A program made the translations under genes and the position numbers. Below, piece after piece: positions 8,801 through 34,645 of a stretch of DNA of 64,000 nt. The notes below the pieces were generated by a model, which did not search any database, was not told where the DNA came from, and was given only the letters and a program-made list of their open reading frames with translations. The stretch spans positions 47,729 through 111,728 of the forward strand of contig CAYMGE010000002.1 of assembly GCA_964389925.1 (NCBI GenBank), read 5' to 3'. Positions within the stretch are counted from its first letter, which is position 1. Each line of letters starts with the position of its first letter. The DNA is from an uncultured Ardenticatenaceae bacterium. Its GTDB lineage: Bacteria; Chloroflexota; Anaerolineae; Promineifilales; Promineifilaceae.

Positions 8801-10306
8801 CTATGCGCTAAAAGCAGCAAGAAAGATACAAGCCCCTACGCCAAGTAAAACCAATCCTGCAATTGCCCAATTGTGCTGGGCTTTGTTGAATTCCTCAACG
8901 CTGTTCCACTGTCGATTACTCCAAGACCACTCACGCCCCTTGAACAAAACAGCGATAGAGAGAACGAGATTGAGCAACATGCCAACCACAGGAATAAATG
9001 AAAGAATCGTTGTGGCAATGATGAGATACCACATTCCATTGCCAAAGCCCCAAAAACCCGTCAGCAAAAAACCACCCCAGCATAAGCCATGTCCTTCAGG
9101 TGGAAGCTGTTTTGACATATAGCCAGACTGTGAAACGGGGGGATTGGGGCTTTCCCATCTGAGCGGCTGGTCGGCCGGTGTTTGCGACTGAAAGGGAGCC
9201 GGCTTGTTATTAGTTACAGCCGGGAAAGGTGGAAATGGATCATGTCTGGGCGGTGGATTTTGCGGTGGCGGGAAGTGAGGGGATGAAAATCCACTGCTTT
9301 GTGGCGGCATTTTGGGCTGACGCAAGGCTGTCCGCATCTCGGCAATTGTGTTCCATCGGTCGGCCGGATTGCGTGCAACGGCCTTGAGAATCGCGTCCTC
9401 CGTGCTATCAGCGATCATCGGATTAAATTTGGTAATAGCTGGAAAGTTGAACGGATCTTCATGCGGTTGGCGCAGCGTCAACAGGTAGTGGAGCGTCGCG
9501 CCGAGCGCGTAGATGTCGCTGCGGGCATCTGTTTGACCAGAGCCATACTGTTCGGGGGGCGCGAAACCAGCCGTACCAAAGCTAGTCGTGTCTGTGCTTT
9601 TGCCCTGCTTGAAAAAGCGCACAATGCCAAAGTCGATCAGCTTGATGCGCTGATCGGCCGTCAGCATGATGTTATCGGGCTTGAGGTCGCGGAAGATAAT
9701 CGGCCGTGGCTGCGTGTGCAGATAGTGCAGCACGTCGCAGAGCTGATCCGCCCACTCAAGCACCTTTTTCTCATCGATTGGTTCGTTTTGCTGTTCAGCA
9801 ATGTCCGCCAACGTTTTGCCCTCGATAAAATCCATCACGAGATAATGCTTGCCACCCTCGTCAAAGTAATCGACCACGTTGGGCAAGTTGGGGTGAACGA
9901 GATTTGAGAGCAGCATTGCCTCTTGTTCAAAAGCGGCAATCGCATCGTTGATTTGTTGCTCGTCTGTCAGAAGCCCATCACTCATCTCTTTGAGCGCCCA
10001 TTGTTTGCCGCGCAGTCGGGTGTCATCGACGAGATAGACGGCTCCCATGCCGCCCTGCCCAAGCACGCGGATGATCATGTAGCGGTCTGCAAGCGTATGG
10101 TTGGTGGGCAAACGGCCTGTTGTACTTTGCCGCTGGAGCGGCCCCGTTTTCAAATCGGCCGCACATTGATAGCAGAAGTTGGCTTGCAGGTTGTTGGCTG
10201 CGCCGCACTGATGGCAGCGGCGCTCAGTGAGCAGTGAGCAGGAACAGTTTGTGCAAAAACGCGAATTCGGCCGATTTTCCGTGCCGCATTGTGGACAGTA
10301 TTTCAT
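8801..10306 (-). CDS. Ser/Thr protein kinase with N-terminal double zinc-ribbon and C-terminal membrane domain
   Basis: 501 aa. CPQCG..CTNC and CHQCG..CYQC ribbons. Hanks motifs GQGGMGAVY, ALKE, FRDLKPDNIM, DFG, GTAGFAPPE. Pro-rich linker and C-terminal TM helices. Its start shares one base with the upstream kinase stop (TAATG). Confidence 0.9.
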   Translation of the reverse strand: MKYCPQCGTENRPNSRFCTNCSCSLLTERRCHQCGAANNLQANFCYQCAADLKTGPLQRQSTTGRLPTNHTLADRYMIIRVLGQGGMGAVYLVDDTRLRGKQWALKEMSDGLLTDEQQINDAIAAFEQEAMLLSNLVHPNLPNVVDYFDEGGKHYLVMDFIEGKTLADIAEQQNEPIDEKKVLEWADQLCDVLHYLHTQPRPIIFRDLKPDNIMLTADQRIKLIDFGIVRFFKQGKSTDTTSFGTAGFAPPEQYGSGQTDARSDIYALGATLHYLLTLRQPHEDPFNFPAITKFNPMIADSTEDAILKAVARNPADRWNTIAEMRTALRQPKMPPQSSGFSSPHFPPPQNPPPRHDPFPPFPAVTNNKPAPFQSQTPADQPLRWESPNPPVSQSGYMSKQLPPEGHGLCWGGFLLTGFWGFGNGMWYLIIATTILSFIPVVGMLLNLVLSIAVLFKGREWSWSNRQWNSVEEFNKAQHNWAIAGLVLLGVGACIFLAAFSA

Positions 10307-27838: not shown

Positions 27839-27884
27839 GTCAACGACTACCGCCTTGAACTGGTAGTCGTTGACATCTTTTTTC
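27839..27884 (+). terminator. Rho-independent terminator of the acyl-CoA synthetase gene (overlaps 3' end of the convergent gene)
   Basis: Perfect 13-bp stem GTCAACGACTACC / GGTAGTCGTTGAC (27839-27851 / 27862-27874), 10-nt loop, then ATCTTTTTTC. Confidence 0.65.
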
Positions 27885-29100
27885 TGGCTTTACGCCAAAC
27901 GCTGACGGTGTGAATTTGAAATGTTTGGGGAAGGGTGTCAATCGGCCGAATTTTCACCATCTCATACCCTGCGCCCACCAAGTTACGCGCGTCTCGCGCC
28001 ATTGTGGAAATGTTTGGATTGCTATAAACAATGCGGGGCGCACCGTGATTGACAATCTCAAACCCCGCCTCGTTGCTTAACCCATTTTCGTCACAATCGA
28101 GAACGAGAACGTCGGCTGTTCGGCCGATGTTTGGCAAAGCCGTCTCGACCCAATCGTTGTAGAGCGCAACGTTGTCGGTGTGATCCAGATTGACCGCAGC
28201 ATCTTCAATCGCATCTGCGTTCACCTCCACACCGATCACCTCGCGGGCAAATACCGACAGCGCGTTTGTCAAAACACCAACACCGCTATAACAGTCGATG
28301 ACCAATTCATCGCCGTACAACATCGTCAAATCCGAAACAGCTGTTGCAACCATTTCTGCGCTGTCTGGGCTGACGTGAAAGTGGCTGCCCGGTGACACGC
28401 GATAGGGGCATCCCGCTATGCGCTGTACTTGATAGGGGTCGCCAATTAAGGTTGCCGCGATCCCGTCAGGCATGACAAGCGCGACCGAAACGGGAAAATC
28501 GATCTCAATGGTGGGTGGTTCCGCGTCGCGCATCTCGAAAGCGAGCAGCACGTTGTCCTCAGAATCGACGCGCACGTGTAGCTTGATCAGGTTATCAAGC
28601 TCAAGGTCAATGTCGCTCAGAACATTTTGCAGCGTCGGATGCAGCACGGGGCATGTGGGTGAGGGCAGGACCTTGCGCTGGCTGCGTGACCAATAGCCGA
28701 GTCTATTATCGGCCGTCTTGCTCAACGTCGTCATCATGCGATAGCCCCATCGCTGCGGGTGTGGAACGATGGGATCGGCCGTGATATTTTTCAGCCGCCC
28801 GACACGCTGCAACTGGTCGAGCATAATTTGCTCTTTGAAACGCAGTTGTGCCTTATAGTTGATGTGCTGAAAATCAGCGATTGGAATATCGGCCGGCTGA
28901 CAGCGTGGCTCTATCCGCTCTTTTGCCGCTTTGAGGATTTCGACGATTTCGGCTTCGGCCGATTGTCCTTTTTGTTTGACAATCCGCGCTCGCACCGTCT
29001 CGTTGGGCAACCCACCCGCCACAAAAATCGTCTGATTATTTGCTTTGGCAATCGCCTTTGCACCGTGCGCCATCTTGGTCAATTTGAGCGTTGTTGTCAT
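27847..29100 (-). CDS. TRAM-domain RumA/TrmA-like SAM methyltransferase homologue with degenerate catalytic motifs
   Basis: 417 aa. N-terminal TRAM-like OB fold (GAKAIAKANNQTIFVAGGLPNETVRARIV), SAM motif I VIDCYSGVGVLT. The DPPR, SCNP and HVE catalytic blocks are replaced (see findings). Confidence 0.7.
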   Translation of the reverse strand: MTTTLKLTKMAHGAKAIAKANNQTIFVAGGLPNETVRARIVKQKGQSAEAEIVEILKAAKERIEPRCQPADIPIADFQHINYKAQLRFKEQIMLDQLQRVGRLKNITADPIVPHPQRWGYRMMTTLSKTADNRLGYWSRSQRKVLPSPTCPVLHPTLQNVLSDIDLELDNLIKLHVRVDSEDNVLLAFEMRDAEPPTIEIDFPVSVALVMPDGIAATLIGDPYQVQRIAGCPYRVSPGSHFHVSPDSAEMVATAVSDLTMLYGDELVIDCYSGVGVLTNALSVFAREVIGVEVNADAIEDAAVNLDHTDNVALYNDWVETALPNIGRTADVLVLDCDENGLSNEAGFEIVNHGAPRIVYSNPNISTMARDARNLVGAGYEMVKIRPIDTLPQTFQIHTVSVWRKARKKMSTTTSSRR

Positions 29101-29122
29101 AGAAACATACCTAGCAGTCTGC

Positions 29123-31066
29123 CTACATCAAACGACCAGCCAACCCCAGCCCATACCCCGCCAGCCAAGCCGGCAGCGTGCCGCGCACGGTGCGCGTGAT
29201 GGCGCGTTCGGGATGACGGTAGGCACTCAACGCCATCACATTTGCCATTGTACCCGTCAAGCCCATCACCTGCGCCGGTGTAAACTCGCCATCGGCAAAC
29301 GACAACGCTAGCGGCCCCAACCATGCCCATTTGCGTGCAGGCTTCAGCCCTAATTTCATCGACAAATCTCCCACAATCCGGTTGGCGACTGAAACGTGAT
29401 GCGTATGCCCTTCGGCATGTGGTGCATCAATTTTGTCCAGCAGGTCGCCATTGCGCTGCGCGGCAAGCCACGCGCCTGTCAATGCCGCAATCATGATCGC
29501 TTTTGTCTTTGCGTTTTCAAATTGCAGAGCCGCGACAGTGAGCGGCACAAACCAATCTAAATTCCAACCGCGAAATTCTTCGACACGCTGACGATAGGCT
29601 GCTTCAGACGTAGCGGCCGCCAACGTGATAGCTCCCGCCTCCATATAGGCTTGGCCGATCAACCAATCCAACCAGCCAGTTCTCTGTGCGCTTGTGAGCG
29701 TCGCGGCGGGGGCAAGCGTAGAGGTAGCGAGGGCGATTAGCTTGGGCGAAAATGAGGTCTGCATGGGGGAAACATCCCCGCTGTCATGATGGTGATGCCC
29801 ACCGCCACCGTGCGCATGAATTGTGCTGACACCGTTCAGCGAATGTGTGTGTGACTGTTCATGCTCGCTATCGTCGCCGTGTGAATGTGGGGCAGGGGTG
29901 AGCATTCCCTTCTGCTCGACAAAAGGCAATGCGGCCGCACCAAGCGCAGCAAGTCCGACGCAGGGAACAGCCAACGACTCAGGCATATCGAGCATGTCAT
30001 TGATGGCGGCCGCACCAATCCCTGCTGCCGCAAGCCCCACAAGCGCAAGTTCTTGCGGTTCAACCTCGCTCCGCTTCACTGCTGCCTCATCGACTGACAA
30101 CTCTTGGCTCAATTGGTAGCCAGCATCTTCGAGCGCGTGCTTGAGATAGTGAACGTAGTCAAGCCCTTCAAGTGGCTCTGTTGCGTGCAGGACGCGGAAA
30201 AAGTTGAGGTAGCAGAGCCGTACCCCGCGTTCGTTGGCGAGATGTACCCACGTGTGGGCGGCCGAATGGTAGTCCATCTCCATCATTTCAGCTTGGGTAA
30301 AACGATGGGCGAGAACAACATGTGGCAAACGCCCTTTGGCGATGAACCAGTCGCCGCGCTGATGGCGTGACTCGGCAAAATAGGCCATCGTGAGGCCATA
30401 GCTGTTCATTGCCTTGAGCGTGTCGTTGATCTGCATCTCGTGACCGAGAACCCAATCCCCCTCAAACGCGACCAGCTTGCCGACGTGGCCGGCCGAGTGC
30501 AGCCCGTGGTCTATCAACTCAGGATCAGGCCAATCGTAGCTGGCAGGGCGCGGCACGACAGCGAGGCCAAGCGACTGTAAGTGTTTGCCGAACGCCTCAT
30601 CAAAGCCGAGTCCAAGATCACCATGTGCGAGCAAGCTGCCAGCAAAGACGAGTGTGTTGTCGTCGAGCTGCTGCCCTTTGAGCTGGGGCAGTCGCCAGTT
30701 GAGCGCACTTTCGATGATCGGGATAAATTGGGCTGTTCCGTGCAGATAGATCCATTGCCCCAGTGGAGGGGCTTCTGCAAGCCTATCGGCCGGCACCATC
30801 GGCCGCAACACCCCACGCTGAATCAACCCATTAAGTGTCATTTCAGGCAGTGAAATGTGCGTTGCGCCTTTAGCGACAAGCTGTTTAGCGAGATCGTCAA
30901 ACGTGATGCCAGCCCGCAGCGCGGCGACGGTCACATCGTCAAAATCGACACAAATGCCAACTTTTTTGTTGCGCTTTTCTTGCGCGTGACGTTTTTGCAA
31001 CACTTTTGTGCTGGCGACTGTGCCAACAGTGGTTGCAGCGAGGGAAAGAATACGGGAAAGCTTCAA
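29123..31066 (-). CDS. Large polytopic membrane protein with N-terminal soluble domain and His-rich loop (function unknown)
   Basis: 647 aa. N-terminal anchor, soluble domain of about 330 aa, then about 8 or more hydrophobic helices. Loop HSHGDDSEHEQSHTHSLNGVSTIHAHGGGGHHHHDSGD. From memory it resembles DUF5693-type proteins; unverified. Confidence 0.65.
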   Translation of the reverse strand: MKLSRILSLAATTVGTVASTKVLQKRHAQEKRNKKVGICVDFDDVTVAALRAGITFDDLAKQLVAKGATHISLPEMTLNGLIQRGVLRPMVPADRLAEAPPLGQWIYLHGTAQFIPIIESALNWRLPQLKGQQLDDNTLVFAGSLLAHGDLGLGFDEAFGKHLQSLGLAVVPRPASYDWPDPELIDHGLHSAGHVGKLVAFEGDWVLGHEMQINDTLKAMNSYGLTMAYFAESRHQRGDWFIAKGRLPHVVLAHRFTQAEMMEMDYHSAAHTWVHLANERGVRLCYLNFFRVLHATEPLEGLDYVHYLKHALEDAGYQLSQELSVDEAAVKRSEVEPQELALVGLAAAGIGAAAINDMLDMPESLAVPCVGLAALGAAALPFVEQKGMLTPAPHSHGDDSEHEQSHTHSLNGVSTIHAHGGGGHHHHDSGDVSPMQTSFSPKLIALATSTLAPAATLTSAQRTGWLDWLIGQAYMEAGAITLAAATSEAAYRQRVEEFRGWNLDWFVPLTVAALQFENAKTKAIMIAALTGAWLAAQRNGDLLDKIDAPHAEGHTHHVSVANRIVGDLSMKLGLKPARKWAWLGPLALSFADGEFTPAQVMGLTGTMANVMALSAYRHPERAITRTVRGTLPAWLAGYGLGLAGRLM

Positions 31067-31119
31067 CGAAAACTCCGAAATTCAGCGAGCAGTAAGCCGA
31101 GAAAGCTGCTGTTCACTGT

Positions 31120-32319
31120 TTATTGTTTGCTGTCTATTGCGGTCTTTAACTGCTTGCCAAGCAACATTCGCCCTGTATCGGTTTTGAATACGTCGATGAG
31201 GGTGCGCCAGACGGCGAGCTTGCTGCGGAAATCGGCCGACCATTGAGCCGTTGCCGCACGATCTTCAACACCGCGCTTGATGCGGTCGGTTAATGTTTGG
31301 ACAGGTTTTTGCTGGCTGCGTTTGAGGATGTCAGAAAGACCGAGTGTGGCGATATGGTCACGCAGTTTCGCGGGTGTTGCACCTGCCAAACGCTGCATGA
31401 CATCGGCGGGGACAGGCGCACTCAATAGCTTTTGTGCAAGCGCCAGACCCGCAAGGGCATAGGGCGCAGCGCGGCGGTCGATAGCGCGTTGTGTGAACGT
31501 TTGCCAGTCGATATTACCGGCATGACTGACGCGCATGATGTCGGTGAACTGAACGAGAGACGGTGCGCCTTCGATCAGATGAAAGCAAAAGTGAACGCAG
31601 ACATGCAGAAGCAAATCTTCGCGGCTCAGAACACGGCAAGTGTGGTCGCCAAATTGAGCAATTTCAGCACGTTCACGGATGCCGGGTGTGATGTTGACTT
31701 TAAGACCATACCACGACTCTTCAATCGAGCTATGCGGTTCGATCATTCGGTCATTCTTGGCGGAAAGATAGGGGTTTGGGGTGTTATCAGCCGCCCCCTC
31801 GCGCTTAAATGTCGAAGTATGCTTTGTCACGCCTGCACCTGACTCGGCCGATTTATGCTTCCCGCCATAGCCTATCTCGCTCAACATCTGTTCTGCTTGC
31901 GCCAACTGCGCTGGCTCAAATAGCAGGTCAATGTCGTTCATCGGGCGCAGGGCGGGTTCAGGGTAAACGTGCGCGGCGAGGTGTGCGCCTTTGAGGGCAA
32001 TCGGCCGAATGCCTCGCACTTCGCACGCCGCCAACACGTCGTCTAGCTGCGTGTAAATGGCTGTCGCCCGTTTAGCTTGCGCGGCGTGTGTCACCTTGAG
32101 TTTGGCAAATGCACGTATTGGCAGGTCGAGTTGCCACTCGCTGACGCGATGGTAAAGCTGGGGAGCCAGCCCTAACACAATTGCACGAATAGCGACATCG
32201 TCCCACACGCTATCCTCTGCGAGTCGATCACCCCACTTGGTTTGCCATTGCTCGGCCGACCAATCGGGGCGTAATGCGTCTAAGATAAATTCAGTTGCTT
32301 GTAATGGGGATTTTTTCAT
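31120..32319 (-). CDS. Nucleotidyltransferase, NTP_transf_5 (PF14907-like) family
   Basis: The ORF-track start at 32328 is TTG; ATG at 32319 (MKKSPLQ) has GAGG upstream. Signature IALKGAHLAAHVYPEPALRPMNDIDLLFEP (G...DxD of the pol-beta NTase fold). Confidence 0.75.
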   Translation of the reverse strand: MKKSPLQATEFILDALRPDWSAEQWQTKWGDRLAEDSVWDDVAIRAIVLGLAPQLYHRVSEWQLDLPIRAFAKLKVTHAAQAKRATAIYTQLDDVLAACEVRGIRPIALKGAHLAAHVYPEPALRPMNDIDLLFEPAQLAQAEQMLSEIGYGGKHKSAESGAGVTKHTSTFKREGAADNTPNPYLSAKNDRMIEPHSSIEESWYGLKVNITPGIRERAEIAQFGDHTCRVLSREDLLLHVCVHFCFHLIEGAPSLVQFTDIMRVSHAGNIDWQTFTQRAIDRRAAPYALAGLALAQKLLSAPVPADVMQRLAGATPAKLRDHIATLGLSDILKRSQQKPVQTLTDRIKRGVEDRAATAQWSADFRSKLAVWRTLIDVFKTDTGRMLLGKQLKTAIDSKQ

Positions 32320-32323
32320 TTGC

Positions 32324-32342
32324 CTCAATTGCCAAAGAGAGA
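32324..32342. repeat. Left arm of a perfect 19-bp inverted repeat flanking the twin peptide genes
   Basis: CTCAATTGCCAAAGAGAGA is the exact reverse complement of 32718-32736. It overlaps the SD region of the nucleotidyltransferase gene. Confidence 0.9.
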
Positions 32343-32421
32343 CGCGCTACCAAACGAGTTGATGTTCAGTCTGTGCGGCAACGTTTGTTACCGGATGGCT
32401 TACGCCATCAATAAAATCGGT

Positions 32422-32487
32422 TTAGTGAGAGCTAAAGGTAACTTGAGAAAGTTCTTCGTGCTTTTGGATTTCTGGCTTTACGTACAT
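32422..32487 (-). CDS. Small peptide gene, copy 1 (21 aa: MYVKPEIQKHEELSQVTFSSH)
   Basis: ATG with AGGAG 7 nt upstream, TAA stop. The peptide is identical to copy 2, and all differences between the copies are synonymous. Confidence 0.7.
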   Translation of the reverse strand: MYVKPEIQKHEELSQVTFSSH

Positions 32488-32616
32488 GGGAATGCTCCTA
32501 TGATTAAAGTTGTGATTGTGTTTGATACGTTTGTATCGGGTTGTGGATACTGTTGTATCCATGGTCACGTGTGTGACCGTGCGCTTATGCGCTGAATTAG
32601 AGACGCGATCTTCGGC

Positions 32617-32682
32617 TTAGTGAGAGCTGAAGGTAACTTGAGACAATTCTTCGTGCTTTTGAATTTCTGGTTTTACGTACAT
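32617..32682 (-). CDS. Small peptide gene, copy 2 (21 aa: MYVKPEIQKHEELSQVTFSSH)
   Basis: ATG with AGGAGA 6 nt upstream, TAA stop. Differs from copy 1 at AAA/AAG, ATT/ATC, TTG/CTT, TTC/TTT only. Confidence 0.7.
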   Translation of the reverse strand: MYVKPEIQKHEELSQVTFSSH

Positions 32683-32717
32683 AAGGTTCTCCTAAAAGGA
32701 TAATGTCTGTTAGCGAA

Positions 32718-32736
32718 TCTCTCTTTGGCAATTGAG
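32718..32736. repeat. Right arm of the perfect 19-bp inverted repeat
   Basis: TCTCTCTTTGGCAATTGAG. Lies 36-54 nt upstream of peptide copy 2 and just downstream of the predicted promoter. Confidence 0.9.
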
Positions 32737-32749
32737 CATCGTAACAGGG

Positions 32750-32778
32750 TGTATAACGCAGTTTTTCAGATTTGTCCA
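32750..32778 (-). promoter_or_regulatory. Sigma-70-like promoter candidate for the peptide operon
   Basis: On the minus strand, TGGACA-17 nt-TATACA. This would place the 5' end of the transcript a few nt before the right IR arm. Prediction by eye only. Confidence 0.35.
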
Positions 32779-32818
32779 GCAAATGGCTCGTTTTGGGGGG
32801 GTAGAACGGGGTTGGATG

Positions 32819-32840
32819 ATTGATTTCGGCCGAAATCAAT
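32819..32840. repeat. Perfect 22-bp palindrome ATTGATTTCGGCCGAAATCAAT (extended TCGGCCGA site)
   Basis: Self-complementary over 22 bp. Lies between the rimM stop (32907) and the predicted peptide-operon promoter. No U-run follows on either strand. Confidence 0.8.
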
Positions 32841-32906
32841 GCAATTTACGCCATTCAGCGTATAACTACCTCTCATCACTTCGAGCTGCACCAATGGACA
32901 AACGGC

Positions 32907-33464
32907 TCAAAGCAACCCGTCTGGCAAATGCACAAGCAGTTGCCCATTGGCAATGTCAACCTCTAGTATCACCCCTTCAATATCGGGAATCAAAATCTCG
33001 CCTTGCTCACCCTGCACAATGAAGACATCATTTGCACCCGTTTCGAGGATTTGGCTGACTGTGCCAAGCTGTTCTCCCGTATCGGTCAGCACGTTGATGC
33101 CAATGGCTTGAAATGCGTAGAATTCATCTTCTGCGAGCGGTAGCGCATCCTCTAGCGTGACAAAAAGCCAGTGTTGACGTAGTGTCCCAGCCTCTTCGCG
33201 CCCGTTGATTTCGGCAAATTTGACGAGGGCTTCTTCTTTGTTGAAGCGCACGTTTTCAACGGTCAGGGGGCGTGGGTTAGCGTCATTCGGCCGACGCGAC
33301 ACATATACGCGCTCTAAATCAAAGAAACGCGCAGGTTCATCGCTTTCAACGGAAACCTTTAGTTCCCCCATCACGCCGTGCGGCTTACGAATAAACCCTA
33401 TAATCAAAAAACGAGGTTCCGCAGAACCTCGCTCCCTTTCTCTTGGTGAAAGATTGTTTGTCAT
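32907..33464 (-). CDS. rimM: 16S rRNA processing protein RimM
   Basis: 185 aa. IGFIRKPHGVMGELKV N-terminal barrel block plus a PRC-barrel C-terminus. Conserved position after rpsP and the KH gene. Confidence 0.9.
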   Translation of the reverse strand: MTNNLSPRERERGSAEPRFLIIGFIRKPHGVMGELKVSVESDEPARFFDLERVYVSRRPNDANPRPLTVENVRFNKEEALVKFAEINGREEAGTLRQHWLFVTLEDALPLAEDEFYAFQAIGINVLTDTGEQLGTVSQILETGANDVFIVQGEQGEILIPDIEGVILEVDIANGQLLVHLPDGLL

Positions 33465-33843: not shown

Positions 33844-34356
33844 CTATGCTTCGCTCGTTTCGTCGGTCTCATCGTTTCCAGTAACAGCGTCAACAAGATT
33901 GCTGACCACGTTAGAAACCACCTCAACTGCGTCTGACGCAGCTTCGCTAACAGCTTCACTCACGGCCGCGGCCGCATCACTCACAGTCTCTTGCACAGAC
34001 TCAATGACGCTGCTTGCAGTCTCCTCAGCCTCTTCAACGATGGGCGGCCATGGCGTGCCTTCAAACTCAGCGACCAACTTGCCCATTTCTTCACCGGCAC
34101 GGAAGCGTGCAAGGCGATCTAGTGTGCCTTGTTTTTCCAAGAGACGACGAACCGCATCTGATGGCTGTGCGCCAACGCTCAACCAGTGCAAGGCACGTCC
34201 TTCTTCAACTTTATAAACAATGGGATCAACCATTGGATTATAATAGCCAATCTGCTCAACAAAACGACCATCGCGCTTAGAGCTACTTTCTGCTACCACA
34301 ACGCGATAACTTGGTTGCCGTTTCTTCCCACGGCGTGCTAAACGAATACGTAACAT
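33844..34356 (-). CDS. rpsP: 30S ribosomal protein S16 with a C-terminal extension of about 85 aa
   Basis: Start set at the ATG at 34356 (MLRIRLARRGKKRQPSYRVVVAES) with GGAGAA upstream. The core S16 is followed by an Ala/Val/Ser/Glu-rich tail. Confidence 0.9.
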   Translation of the reverse strand: MLRIRLARRGKKRQPSYRVVVAESSSKRDGRFVEQIGYYNPMVDPIVYKVEEGRALHWLSVGAQPSDAVRRLLEKQGTLDRLARFRAGEEMGKLVAEFEGTPWPPIVEEAEETASSVIESVQETVSDAAAAVSEAVSEAASDAVEVVSNVVSNLVDAVTGNDETDETSEA

Positions 34357-34645
34357 TTTTAATTCTCCACAATCATTCGATTCTACTGCCATCTCAGCAG
34401 AACCATGTTTTTGTCGCTTGATTGCGACGCAAACCAGTGTTCGGTGAAGTCGAACGACACCCTGTTGAGCAAACGTCCGTCTGCTCATGACACTGACAAA
34501 GCGATCACAGATGGTCAATCACCCATCGCTATGGACGAATTCAAGCTCGTCCACAGCGACAGACTATCAACCGCATCGTAAAGTATATTGCGTGTTCAGT
34601 TTACGCAATACTGCTGCATACGGCATCAAAATGTGCGCTGTATGC

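Follow-up and report, generated by a model that had tools for sequence, protein, structure and literature searches.

A three-part cassette of a near-invariant 21-residue peptide, a PF14907 nucleotidyltransferase and a DUF5693 protein in Chloroflexota, with a predicted RNA helix around the peptide genes

The 64-kb stretch of DNA analysed here, which we refer to as the window, comes from an uncultured Ardenticatenaceae bacterium and carries on its minus strand a small cassette that codes for two identical copies of a 21-residue peptide, a nucleotidyltransferase (NTase) of Pfam family PF14907 and a protein with a DUF5693 domain. A sequence-only reading of this region had proposed a five-gene peptide-modification operon that also took in the adjoining methyltransferase (MTase) homologue. 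Judged from gene neighbourhoods in many genomes, the conserved unit is made up of three parts, the peptide gene or genes, the NTase and DUF5693, and not of five genes. Our favoured reading, which we regard as roughly an even bet, is that the peptide would be a substrate, tailored by the NTase and handed on by DUF5693 at the membrane.

The locus sample comprised five gene neighbourhoods together with a scan that took a single genome for each GTDB species (80 loci). Neighbouring open reading frames (ORFs) were clustered over 83 loci, and a full-flank set of 36 loci, each having ∼10 kb to either side, was used for counts of neighbouring genes. Among the roughly 80 related loci whose flanks are long enough, nearly all have the peptide directly beside the NTase; DUF5693 is present in 63 of the 83 NTase-seeded loci and in 33 of the 36 with full flanks. 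In a metagenome scan seeded on DUF5693, 28 loci had 2 kb or more upstream, and of these 18 contained the NTase and 16 the peptide. DUF5693 copies of at least about 40% identity with enough upstream flank are all linked to the cassette, whereas copies at 33–37% identity are unlinked. The cassette is chromosomal and phylum-wide in Chloroflexota, occurring in Anaerolineae and Caldilineae genomes, and neighbourhood analysis, which had been suggested as a check, finds peptide, NTase and DUF5693 linked across these two groups. The earlier claim that peptides ending in Ser-Ser-His are tied to a membrane protein and to an NTase of the type of PsmN, the pseudomycoidin enzyme described below, is strongly supported by this linkage.

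The order of the three parts is not fixed, since in several loci the peptide gene is located between the NTase and DUF5693 genes, i.e. downstream of the NTase. The flanks also vary. In the window the cassette lies between rimM and the MTase gene, an arrangement also seen on a read-assembly contig from the same organism, and in a genome with an 87%-identical NTase it lies between PhoD and FtsK. Because the flanks differ in this way, the cassette has moved relative to its surroundings as a three-part unit. Two metagenome-assembled genomes labelled Vicinamibacterales, of the Acidobacteriota (loci L056 and L078), hold the full cassette with a kinase, a GT2 and a cyclase-like gene; their NTase is about 46% identical, and either horizontal transfer or mis-binning may be responsible. 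In one Promineifilaceae genome (loci L001 and L018, positions 9430–10081) a small protein and a PIN-domain protein, which probably form a toxin–antitoxin pair, are encoded between the NTase and DUF5693.

Within the window, ORF listing and reading of the sequence place five ORFs in the interval 27847–32778, all in the same direction on the minus strand, as had been reported, and the spacings of 53 and 22 nt between the three large genes were reproduced. The peptide genes pepA (32617–32682) and pepB (32422–32487) encode identical proteins, the 21-codon pepA giving MYVKPEIQKHEELSQVTFSSH, and each has one AGGAG-type ribosome-binding site (RBS) of its own, taggagaacctt-ATG for pepA and taggagcattccc-ATG for pepB. 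They are followed by the NTase gene (31120–32319; 399 aa, with an LKG...NDIDLLF motif), the DUF5693 gene (29123–31066; 647 aa) and, outside the conserved cassette, the gene for the TRAM/RlmD-like MTase homologue (27847–29100; 417 aa). The start of the NTase is probably the ATG at 32319, the TTG at 32328 chosen by the ORF lister being too early, because homologues and an identical database protein (P0001, 399 aa) begin MKKSPL.

That the tiny ORFs are genes is indicated by their pattern of substitution. The two copies in the window differ at 5 nt, every one synonymous. Members of the same peptide family stand beside the NTase in approximately 76 loci, with 54 distinct sequences among 76 loci; twin copies occur in 20 of the 76, and codon differences between twins amount to 79 synonymous against 6 non-synonymous. 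Because the changes between twin copies are almost all synonymous, we conclude from the sequence comparison that the 21-aa ORFs are translated and under strong purifying selection at the protein level. Identical twins, synonymous drift and conservation in about 76 other loci together put the peptides, on these comparisons, well beyond chance.

Among the 54 distinct peptides the Tyr, the tail Ser and the terminal His are always kept, and the other His and the Thr are each found in 53. One clade follows the pattern MY.KP.[ILV].KH..L.Q[VI]TFSSH and a Caldilineae-type clade MK(K)Y.KP.[LIM]KKH..LK[SQ]VTFS[SA]H, giving an overall motif of Y-x-K-P-x-[ILVM]-x-K-H-x-x-L-x-[QS]-[VI]-T-F-S-[SA]-H with a near-invariant C-terminal tail, F-S-[S/A]-H. 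The final search pattern itself prescribed K-P, the L in the middle and F-S-x-H at the tail; looser patterns returned no other peptide type. The peptide is near-invariant across families whose NTases share merely 43–58% identity. NCBIfam holds no model for the peptide, the NTase or DUF5693. Short perfect hairpins lie 3' of both peptide genes on the minus strand (32545–32578 and 32394–32409), GGTCAC-ACAC-GTGACC and GGATAC-AACA-GTATCC from 38 nt after the pepA stop codon and GATGGC-GTAA-GCCATC from 12 nt after that of pepB; these may be mRNA-stabilising or attenuating elements.

The NTase matches Pfam PF14907 (NTP_transf_5) over positions 4–248 of the 249-position profile, with 157.8 bits against a cutoff of 31.2 (E 4.8e-46). 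Its LKG and N-D-I-D-L-L-F residues are invariant in 21 homologues, so that the G...DxD motif is intact. Homologues are plentiful, with 53–89% identity among the best 120, and those that are named come from Anaerolineae, Promineifilaceae and Ardenticatenaceae. An AF2 model of the protein (pLDDT 86) comes closest, in the PDB, to NTase-fold structures, with 5uvd, TM1012 and ANT(2'')-Ia matched at E values near 7e-3. No family in the PADLOC anti-phage defence models matches the NTase or DUF5693. Pseudomycoidin biosynthesis requires the 'uncharacterised NTP transferase' PsmN for attaching one or two hexoses at the phospho-Ser of the C-terminus (PMC6993621), so that the sequence-only reading was essentially right about this enzyme; a D134A/D136A mutant is inactive, and the nearest solved fold is again ANT(2'')-Ia (PMC6993621; review PMC9266682). 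D129 and D131 of the window enzyme would be, by motif, the counterparts of these two essential residues, and the NTase looks active. In many loci (L015, L019, L026–L043, L055 and others) a single peptide locus is surrounded by PF14907 paralogues, two to four in number and often with GT2 genes among them, which suggests successive or alternative tailoring steps.

The 647-aa protein matches DUF5693 (PF18949) with 122 bits against a cutoff of 29 (E 3.7e-35), over profile positions 1–358 of 609 only. In its AF2 model (pLDDT 85.8, pTM 0.83) an N-terminal helix is followed by a Lys/Arg-rich stretch and then by a TIM-like beta/alpha barrel (residues ∼35–330) rich in invariant Asp, His, Glu and Arg. 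A hydrophobic helical hairpin (337–385) comes next, then a disordered His-rich loop with 11 His (394–434) and a helical C-terminal domain carrying invariant AEGHTHH and PARKW motifs. The protein thus shares with the Pfam family, above the gathering threshold, its N-terminal TIM-like domain, whereas the Chloroflexota subfamily has a C-terminal domain of its own with the His-rich loop and AEGHTHH. It had been described as a His-rich polytopic membrane protein. It is indeed His-rich; its polytopic character is uncertain, the hairpin containing the sole two segments above a Kyte–Doolittle value of 1.6 and the remaining C-terminal helices being weakly hydrophobic. As the Lys/Arg cluster follows the first helix, the positive-inside rule, our single guide here, suggests that the barrel faces the cytoplasm.

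A Foldseek search of the DUF5693 model against the PDB returned only generic TIM barrels (pyruvate kinase, TrpA and GH20; E ≥ 0.009), a sequence search against the PDB only His-tag artefacts, and the literature searched no mention of DUF5693/PF18949. Resemblance to CVDFDD, GDW and LxH had prompted us to consider a CE4/NodB-like deacetylase, but this was rejected, as no tool backed it. The distant homologues at 33–37% identity (loci L113, L116, L120, L121 and L137, all metagenome contigs) occur without NTase or peptide and consistently have a Polysacc_synt-type flippase downstream; upstream of them are PyrG, GT2, PMT-like and secreted proteins, the last being possible, unannotated glycoside hydrolases. 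Because these homologues adjoin flippase, GT2 and PMT-like genes even without a peptide, the DUF5693 family as a whole appears to be tied to surface-glycan assembly.

The cassette has a further conserved feature, which lies in the nucleotide sequence. A 32-nt inverted repeat on the minus strand, with 88% complementarity between its arms, brackets both peptide genes; the 5' arm is at 32705–32736, and the 3' arm (32324–32355) covers the ribosome-binding region of the NTase and ends 4 nt before its ATG. The helix is present in both the minimum free energy and the centroid folds of the 461-nt region, whose folding energy of −129.4 kcal/mol compares with −85.1 ± 4.9 kcal/mol for shuffled sequences (z = −9.0). 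In 65 of 76 loci the peptide gene or genes stand between the arms of an equivalent repeat with 14 or more matching positions, its 5' arm having a purine-rich core, ...AAAGGGAGGCGCGCUAC. Where the NTase start can be located in relatives, the 3' arm ends 2–12 nt before it. Rfam 15 gave no match at E ≤ 1 in 32200–33000 of the window.

Our analysis of this element used ungapped inverted repeats and a formal count of pairs, RNAduplex having over-extended the pairing on long flanks, where it was uninformative. For 51 of 58 distinct 5' arms the best partner is the locus's own 3' region, with a complementarity of 0.91 against 0.59. In a gap-free alignment of 42 arm pairs, changes occur on both sides in 25 of 28 pairs, and the covariation score is 0.622, compared with 0.232 ± 0.012 after shuffling and at most 0.20 for slid partners. 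Because the register of the arms was set by the repeat in each individual sequence, the percentage paired is inflated; the compensatory counts are unaffected. On the sense strand the mismatches are G.U in 66 cases and A.C in 16. This excess of G.U argues for an RNA helix over a DNA-level repeat, and the sequence evidence as a whole favours a covarying long-range helix of ∼28 bp forming on the mRNA. A DNA inversion (inverton) was considered and found less likely, given the same mismatch counts and the lack of any recombinase conserved nearby.

From these data we infer that the helix would be an RNase III-type processing or stabilising site for an abundant peptide mRNA, an occluder of the NTase RBS, or both; either action would lead to a high ratio of peptide to enzyme. 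The RNase III stems of 16S and 23S rRNA are likewise covarying helices of ∼25–30 bp that flank a whole functional unit; the helix described here, known from sequence, instead encloses one or two tiny coding genes.

Upstream of the 5' arm, and ending 14 nt before it, is the candidate sigma-70-like promoter TGGACA-17-TATACA (32750–32778, minus strand). The element that had been predicted here is present in the sequence and agrees with 9 of 12 consensus positions, but it is weak and was not listed by a consensus promoter scan; in relatives, the region upstream of the 5' arm scores as promoter-like only slightly above the control (7.97 against 6.87). The strong distal terminator that had been proposed fares similarly. 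A 14-bp GC-rich hairpin, which we list with its strand unassigned, does exist at 27839–27874, where it overlaps the MTase stop codon. The terminator scan lists it on the plus strand, however, with a T-tail that serves the convergent acyl-CoA synthetase gene. As the minus strand continues after it with TTTATTAG, the hairpin may well be a bidirectional terminator shared with that gene.

The MTase homologue itself contains a TRAM domain by Pfam and scores 179.2 bits against TIGR00479 (rumA/RlmD), under the equivalog cutoff of 183.55. Aligned to Streptococcus pneumoniae RlmCD (5XJ2), it retains SAM motif I, and motif IV has changed from DPPR to DCDE, the nucleophilic Cys (ISCN) to Pro (SNPN) and the general base Glu (HVETV) to His (QIHTV). 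The description of the protein as catalytically degenerate is therefore borne out, and it may be a pseudo-enzyme. Its assignment to the peptide operon is not. It adjoins the cassette in this window only, 1 of 83 loci, and in the 87%-identical relative its position is occupied by FtsK. Because it is a singleton neighbour and fits the rimM/rpsP/ffh context, we place it, on gene content, outside the cassette and in a local ribosome and RNA-modification neighbourhood, which comprises ABC-F, RlmI-like, TlyA-like, ffh, rpsP, KH and rimM. The ribosomal protein S16 ORF of the window (33844–34518, minus strand, 224 aa) has its S16 domain at residues 62–120, followed by a long acidic, Ala/Val/Ser-rich C-terminal extension; its listed TTG start is probably too far upstream.

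Many relatives of the cassette are surrounded by additional genes. In the full-flank set the most frequent is a 345-aa P-loop protein, an HprK-related kinase (23 of 36 loci), which has weak NCBIfam matches to HprK_rel_A/B alone (E 2.4e-9 for TIGR04352, and 1.2e-6) and no match in Pfam at 0.01 or in the PDB. Extra NTase paralogues, up to four copies per locus, are found in 20 loci, FGE-sulfatase-like proteins and GT2 glycosyltransferases in 19 each, and an ABC ATPase cluster, which also caught unrelated ABC ATPases, in 17. A B12-radical-SAM enzyme, an ABC-2 transporter permease, two Polysacc_synt flippase clusters (c10 and c12) and c8, a large polytopic protein without a family match, each occur in 10; a second large polytopic protein, c9, is an LA_3751-type putative glycosyltransferase (GT-C-like) and occurs in nine. 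An Asn-synthase (cyclase-like) homologue is present in seven loci, and PMT_2-type proteins, PqqD and B2 in four each; PhyH and SAM-MTase genes are also among the accessory genes. Of the 36 loci, 29 have one or more genes for a glycosyltransferase, a flippase or an ABC-type transporter.

By tblastn with queries from related loci, the kinase, the FGE-like protein, the B12-radical-SAM enzyme, PqqD, B2 and the Asn-synthase were not found in the 64-kb window, and we therefore take the window, like the 87% relative, to represent a minimal form. A search for kinase homologues gave none from a contig as long as this one (133,039 bp), and a kinase elsewhere in the genome is possible. The statement that lasso cyclase, RiPP recognition element (RRE), radical-SAM enzyme and ABC exporter are missing (RiPP: peptide made on the ribosome and modified after translation) accordingly stands for the window but does not extend to related loci. 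In locus L036 (9600–21000), and also in L002, L004, L013, L041, L045, L092–L097 and L105, the cassette is contiguous with a tightly packed lasso-type gene set of FGE-like protein, B12-radical-SAM enzyme, HprK-like kinase, PqqD, B2 and Asn-synthase (lasso-cyclase-like). A search for a separate lasso precursor in loci with B1, B2 or cyclase homologues gave nothing convincing, and the lasso-type machinery may act on a peptide with a core of 3–4 residues.

The closest parallels are found among peptides that are tailored by kinases and NTP transferases. The Linear Polyphosphorylated Peptides (LPP) of Bacillota (Popov et al., Nat Commun, May 2026, PMC13381572) have core genes for the precursor, the HprK-like kinase LppK, the NTP transferase LppN, an RRE as a discrete protein, a peptidase resembling SipW and a pump resembling MsbA; the clusters, which often lie within capsule loci, are described as restricted to Bacillota (PMC13381572). 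The LPP leader has the consensus YxxPxVLxHQxIxFETxxS and is cleaved after Thr, LppK polyphosphorylates Ser3 of the core, and deletion of LppN brought no change in a heterologous host (PMC13381572). Compared by eye with this consensus, our peptide agrees at Y, P, V/I, H, I/L, T and the Ser that comes soon after. It also fits the YxxP leader motif of paeninodin-type lasso peptides. An LPP-type alignment would leave a core of F-S-[S/A]-H, and the lasso convention, with Thr at −2, one of S-S-H.

The likeness to LPP extends to a linear peptide, a YxxP leader, an uncharacterised NTP transferase as partner and a polysaccharide-gene setting. There are also differences. LPP precursors are 35–200 aa long with variable C-termini, whereas the Chloroflexota peptide has four near-invariant residues after the Thr. 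A counterpart of the HprK-like kinase is found in most relatives (23 of 36) and none in the window; for the discrete RRE, no PqqD homologue is found in the window, and PqqD in 4 of 36 related loci. The SipW-like peptidase and MsbA-like pump are not among the recurrent neighbour clusters, no dedicated SpI or MsbA search having been made. Finally, DUF5693 is not reported for LPP, and the cassette lives in Chloroflexota.

With the lasso peptides paeninodin and pseudomycoidin (PadeK/PsmK, PsmN) the cassette shares the annotation of the NTase, ANT(2'')-Ia as nearest fold and a Ser at or near the C-terminus as target, and some related loci add PqqD, B2, Asn-synthase and kinase. In contrast, the window is without cyclase, B1 and B2, and the peptide ends in His and not in Ser. 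A lasso ring needs 7–9 residues with an Asp or Glu, and the peptide offers 3–4 residues after the Thr, none of them acidic; with a core this short, it cannot form a lasso. A likeness of logic only is seen with PqqA of pyrroloquinoline quinone (PQQ) and MftA of mycofactocin. These too are ∼21–30 aa long, with conservation over the whole length, often more than one copy, a conserved C-terminal end and a lineage-wide vertical distribution; the enzymes are unrelated, and our core cassette is without radical SAM, RRE or peptidase.

Taken by shared Pfam family, annotation, fold and context, the cassette looks like an evolutionary relative of the kinase/NTase-tailored RiPPs, both the paeninodin/pseudomycoidin group and LPP. 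It does not itself fit either of these groups, its core being without RRE, peptidase, cyclase and exporter, with no kinase in the window. The earlier claim that no such system had been described needs to be narrowed in the light of LPP, which shares the leader motif and the logic of kinase and NTase, whilst the combination of DUF5693 with a four-residue tail does appear to be undescribed; literature searches on DUF5693/PF18949, 'ScmC' and Chloroflexota RiPPs of this type found nothing relevant. What appears to be new is the DUF5693 partner, the invariant four-residue tail, the RNA element and the minimal form found throughout Chloroflexota.

In the favoured reading, a Ser of the F-S-S-H tail would receive from the NTase a nucleotidyl or sugar-phosphate-type (phosphate-linked) group. 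The group may be a nucleotide, a sugar or a sugar-phosphate. The NTase might act on the bare Ser, or on a Ser first phosphorylated by the HprK-like kinase, whose gene lies alongside in most relatives and not in the window. DUF5693, as a membrane-anchored TIM barrel with metal-binding His motifs, would then process, transfer or export the modified tail, and where the clusters are fuller its probable partner is the glycan machinery (GT2, GT-C, flippase and ABC-2). The RNA helix would probably set the ratio of peptide to enzyme, through RNase III-type excision, mRNA stabilisation and/or occlusion of the NTase RBS. As the tail is invariant, we favour a housekeeping role, as a cofactor-like molecule or an envelope component, over an arms-race antibiotic.

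Several points weigh against a substrate tailored in this way. The cassette is known here from sequence and models. No kinase or RRE was found in the 64-kb window, nor was a leader peptidase or exporter seen, no search dedicated to SpI or MsbA having been made. With the kinase missing there, a phosphate-dependent reaction like that of PsmN may have no substrate if the genome does not encode a kinase elsewhere. Within the NTase family itself, PsmN was inactive in vitro and the LppN deletion was without effect (PMC13381572 for LppN), and the kinship with PsmN and LppN is drawn by analogy from a shared Pfam family and from context. The role given to DUF5693 is a guess, because no significant structural or sequence relative was found. 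Conservation of the whole peptide, beyond the leader, is atypical for RiPPs, and in principle the inverted repeat might function as DNA.

A more specific proposal, which we consider unlikely, is that the F-S-S-H tail is phosphorylated, activated with a nucleotidyl group like a CDP-alcohol and joined through a phosphodiester to a surface glycan, or primes one, with DUF5693 as the membrane transferase. If true, it would define a new class of peptide–glycan conjugate in filamentous Chloroflexota, and would explain why PsmN/LppN-type enzymes and RiPPs occur in polysaccharide loci, as well as the apparent 'glycosylation' of phospho-Ser. We give a similarly small chance to a cofactor or small-molecule RiPP on the logic of PQQ and mycofactocin, where F-S-S-H would be converted and released, the NTase activating it and DUF5693 carrying out hydrolysis or release. 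The tail and the whole peptide are near-invariant beside NTases that are 43–58% identical, and such invariance recalls PqqA and MftA rather than antibiotics; the FGE-like, B12-radical-SAM, PhyH and SAM-MTase genes of relatives, and a distribution that is chromosomal and phylum-wide and not patchy, point the same way. However, the oxidative and radical enzymes were not found in the window, the core is without a conserved peptidase, and the recurrent partners are glycan-assembly genes and not redox enzymes that use a cofactor.

The peptide might alternatively be a trans-acting adaptor or small subunit, a leader-only peptide that activates or targets the NTase and DUF5693, or RRE proteins encoded elsewhere. 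It is essentially 'all leader', with 3–4 residues past the conserved Thr, its conservation over the full length would suit a binding partner, and loci with PqqD, B2 or cyclase homologues offer no other candidate precursor. Yet conservation is highest at the very C-terminus, F-S-x-H-stop, the place on which kinases and NTases work in paeninodin, pseudomycoidin and LPP, and duplication for dosage is typical of substrates, and so we think this reading quite improbable. It is very unlikely, in our view, that the ORFs are regulatory upstream ORFs which, with the RNA structure, control expression of the NTase and DUF5693 and yield a functionless product. The position of the 3' arm, 2–12 nt before the NTase start, and a 461-nt region far more structured than its shuffles would fit such control, but the amino acid sequence is under purifying selection over its full length while the DNA drifts synonymously, each copy has a strong RBS, and the peptide resembles the LPP and lasso leader motif. 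Moreover, it cannot be merely an upstream ORF where it sits between the NTase and DUF5693, as in several loci. The original five-gene operon, with the degenerate TRAM/MTase protein as a dedicated non-catalytic binding partner, is now largely refuted and scarcely tenable. The common strand, the 22-nt gap after DUF5693, the shared distal hairpin and the true loss of the catalytic residues are in its favour; against these stand the single locus out of 83, the FtsK gene at that position in the closest relative of the cassette, and the fit of the MTase to the ffh–rpsP–KH–rimM, RlmI-like and TlyA-like RNA and ribosome context.

The cassette bears on several wider questions, among them what PF14907 'NTP transferases' do in RiPP pathways. 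It consists of a single tiny invariant peptide, an NTase and a partner protein; no natural context found so far is more stripped-down, and for that reason it is a simple system in which to determine the PF14907 reaction. It also gives the orphan family DUF5693 its first functional context, with a ribosomal peptide and glycan-assembly genes, and the bracketing helix would be a new, testable example of control at the RNA level of the stoichiometry of precursor and enzyme. Finally, kinase/NTase-tailored peptides would be extended from Bacillota to Chloroflexota, including the abundant filament formers of wastewater (Promineifilaceae, Leptofilum).

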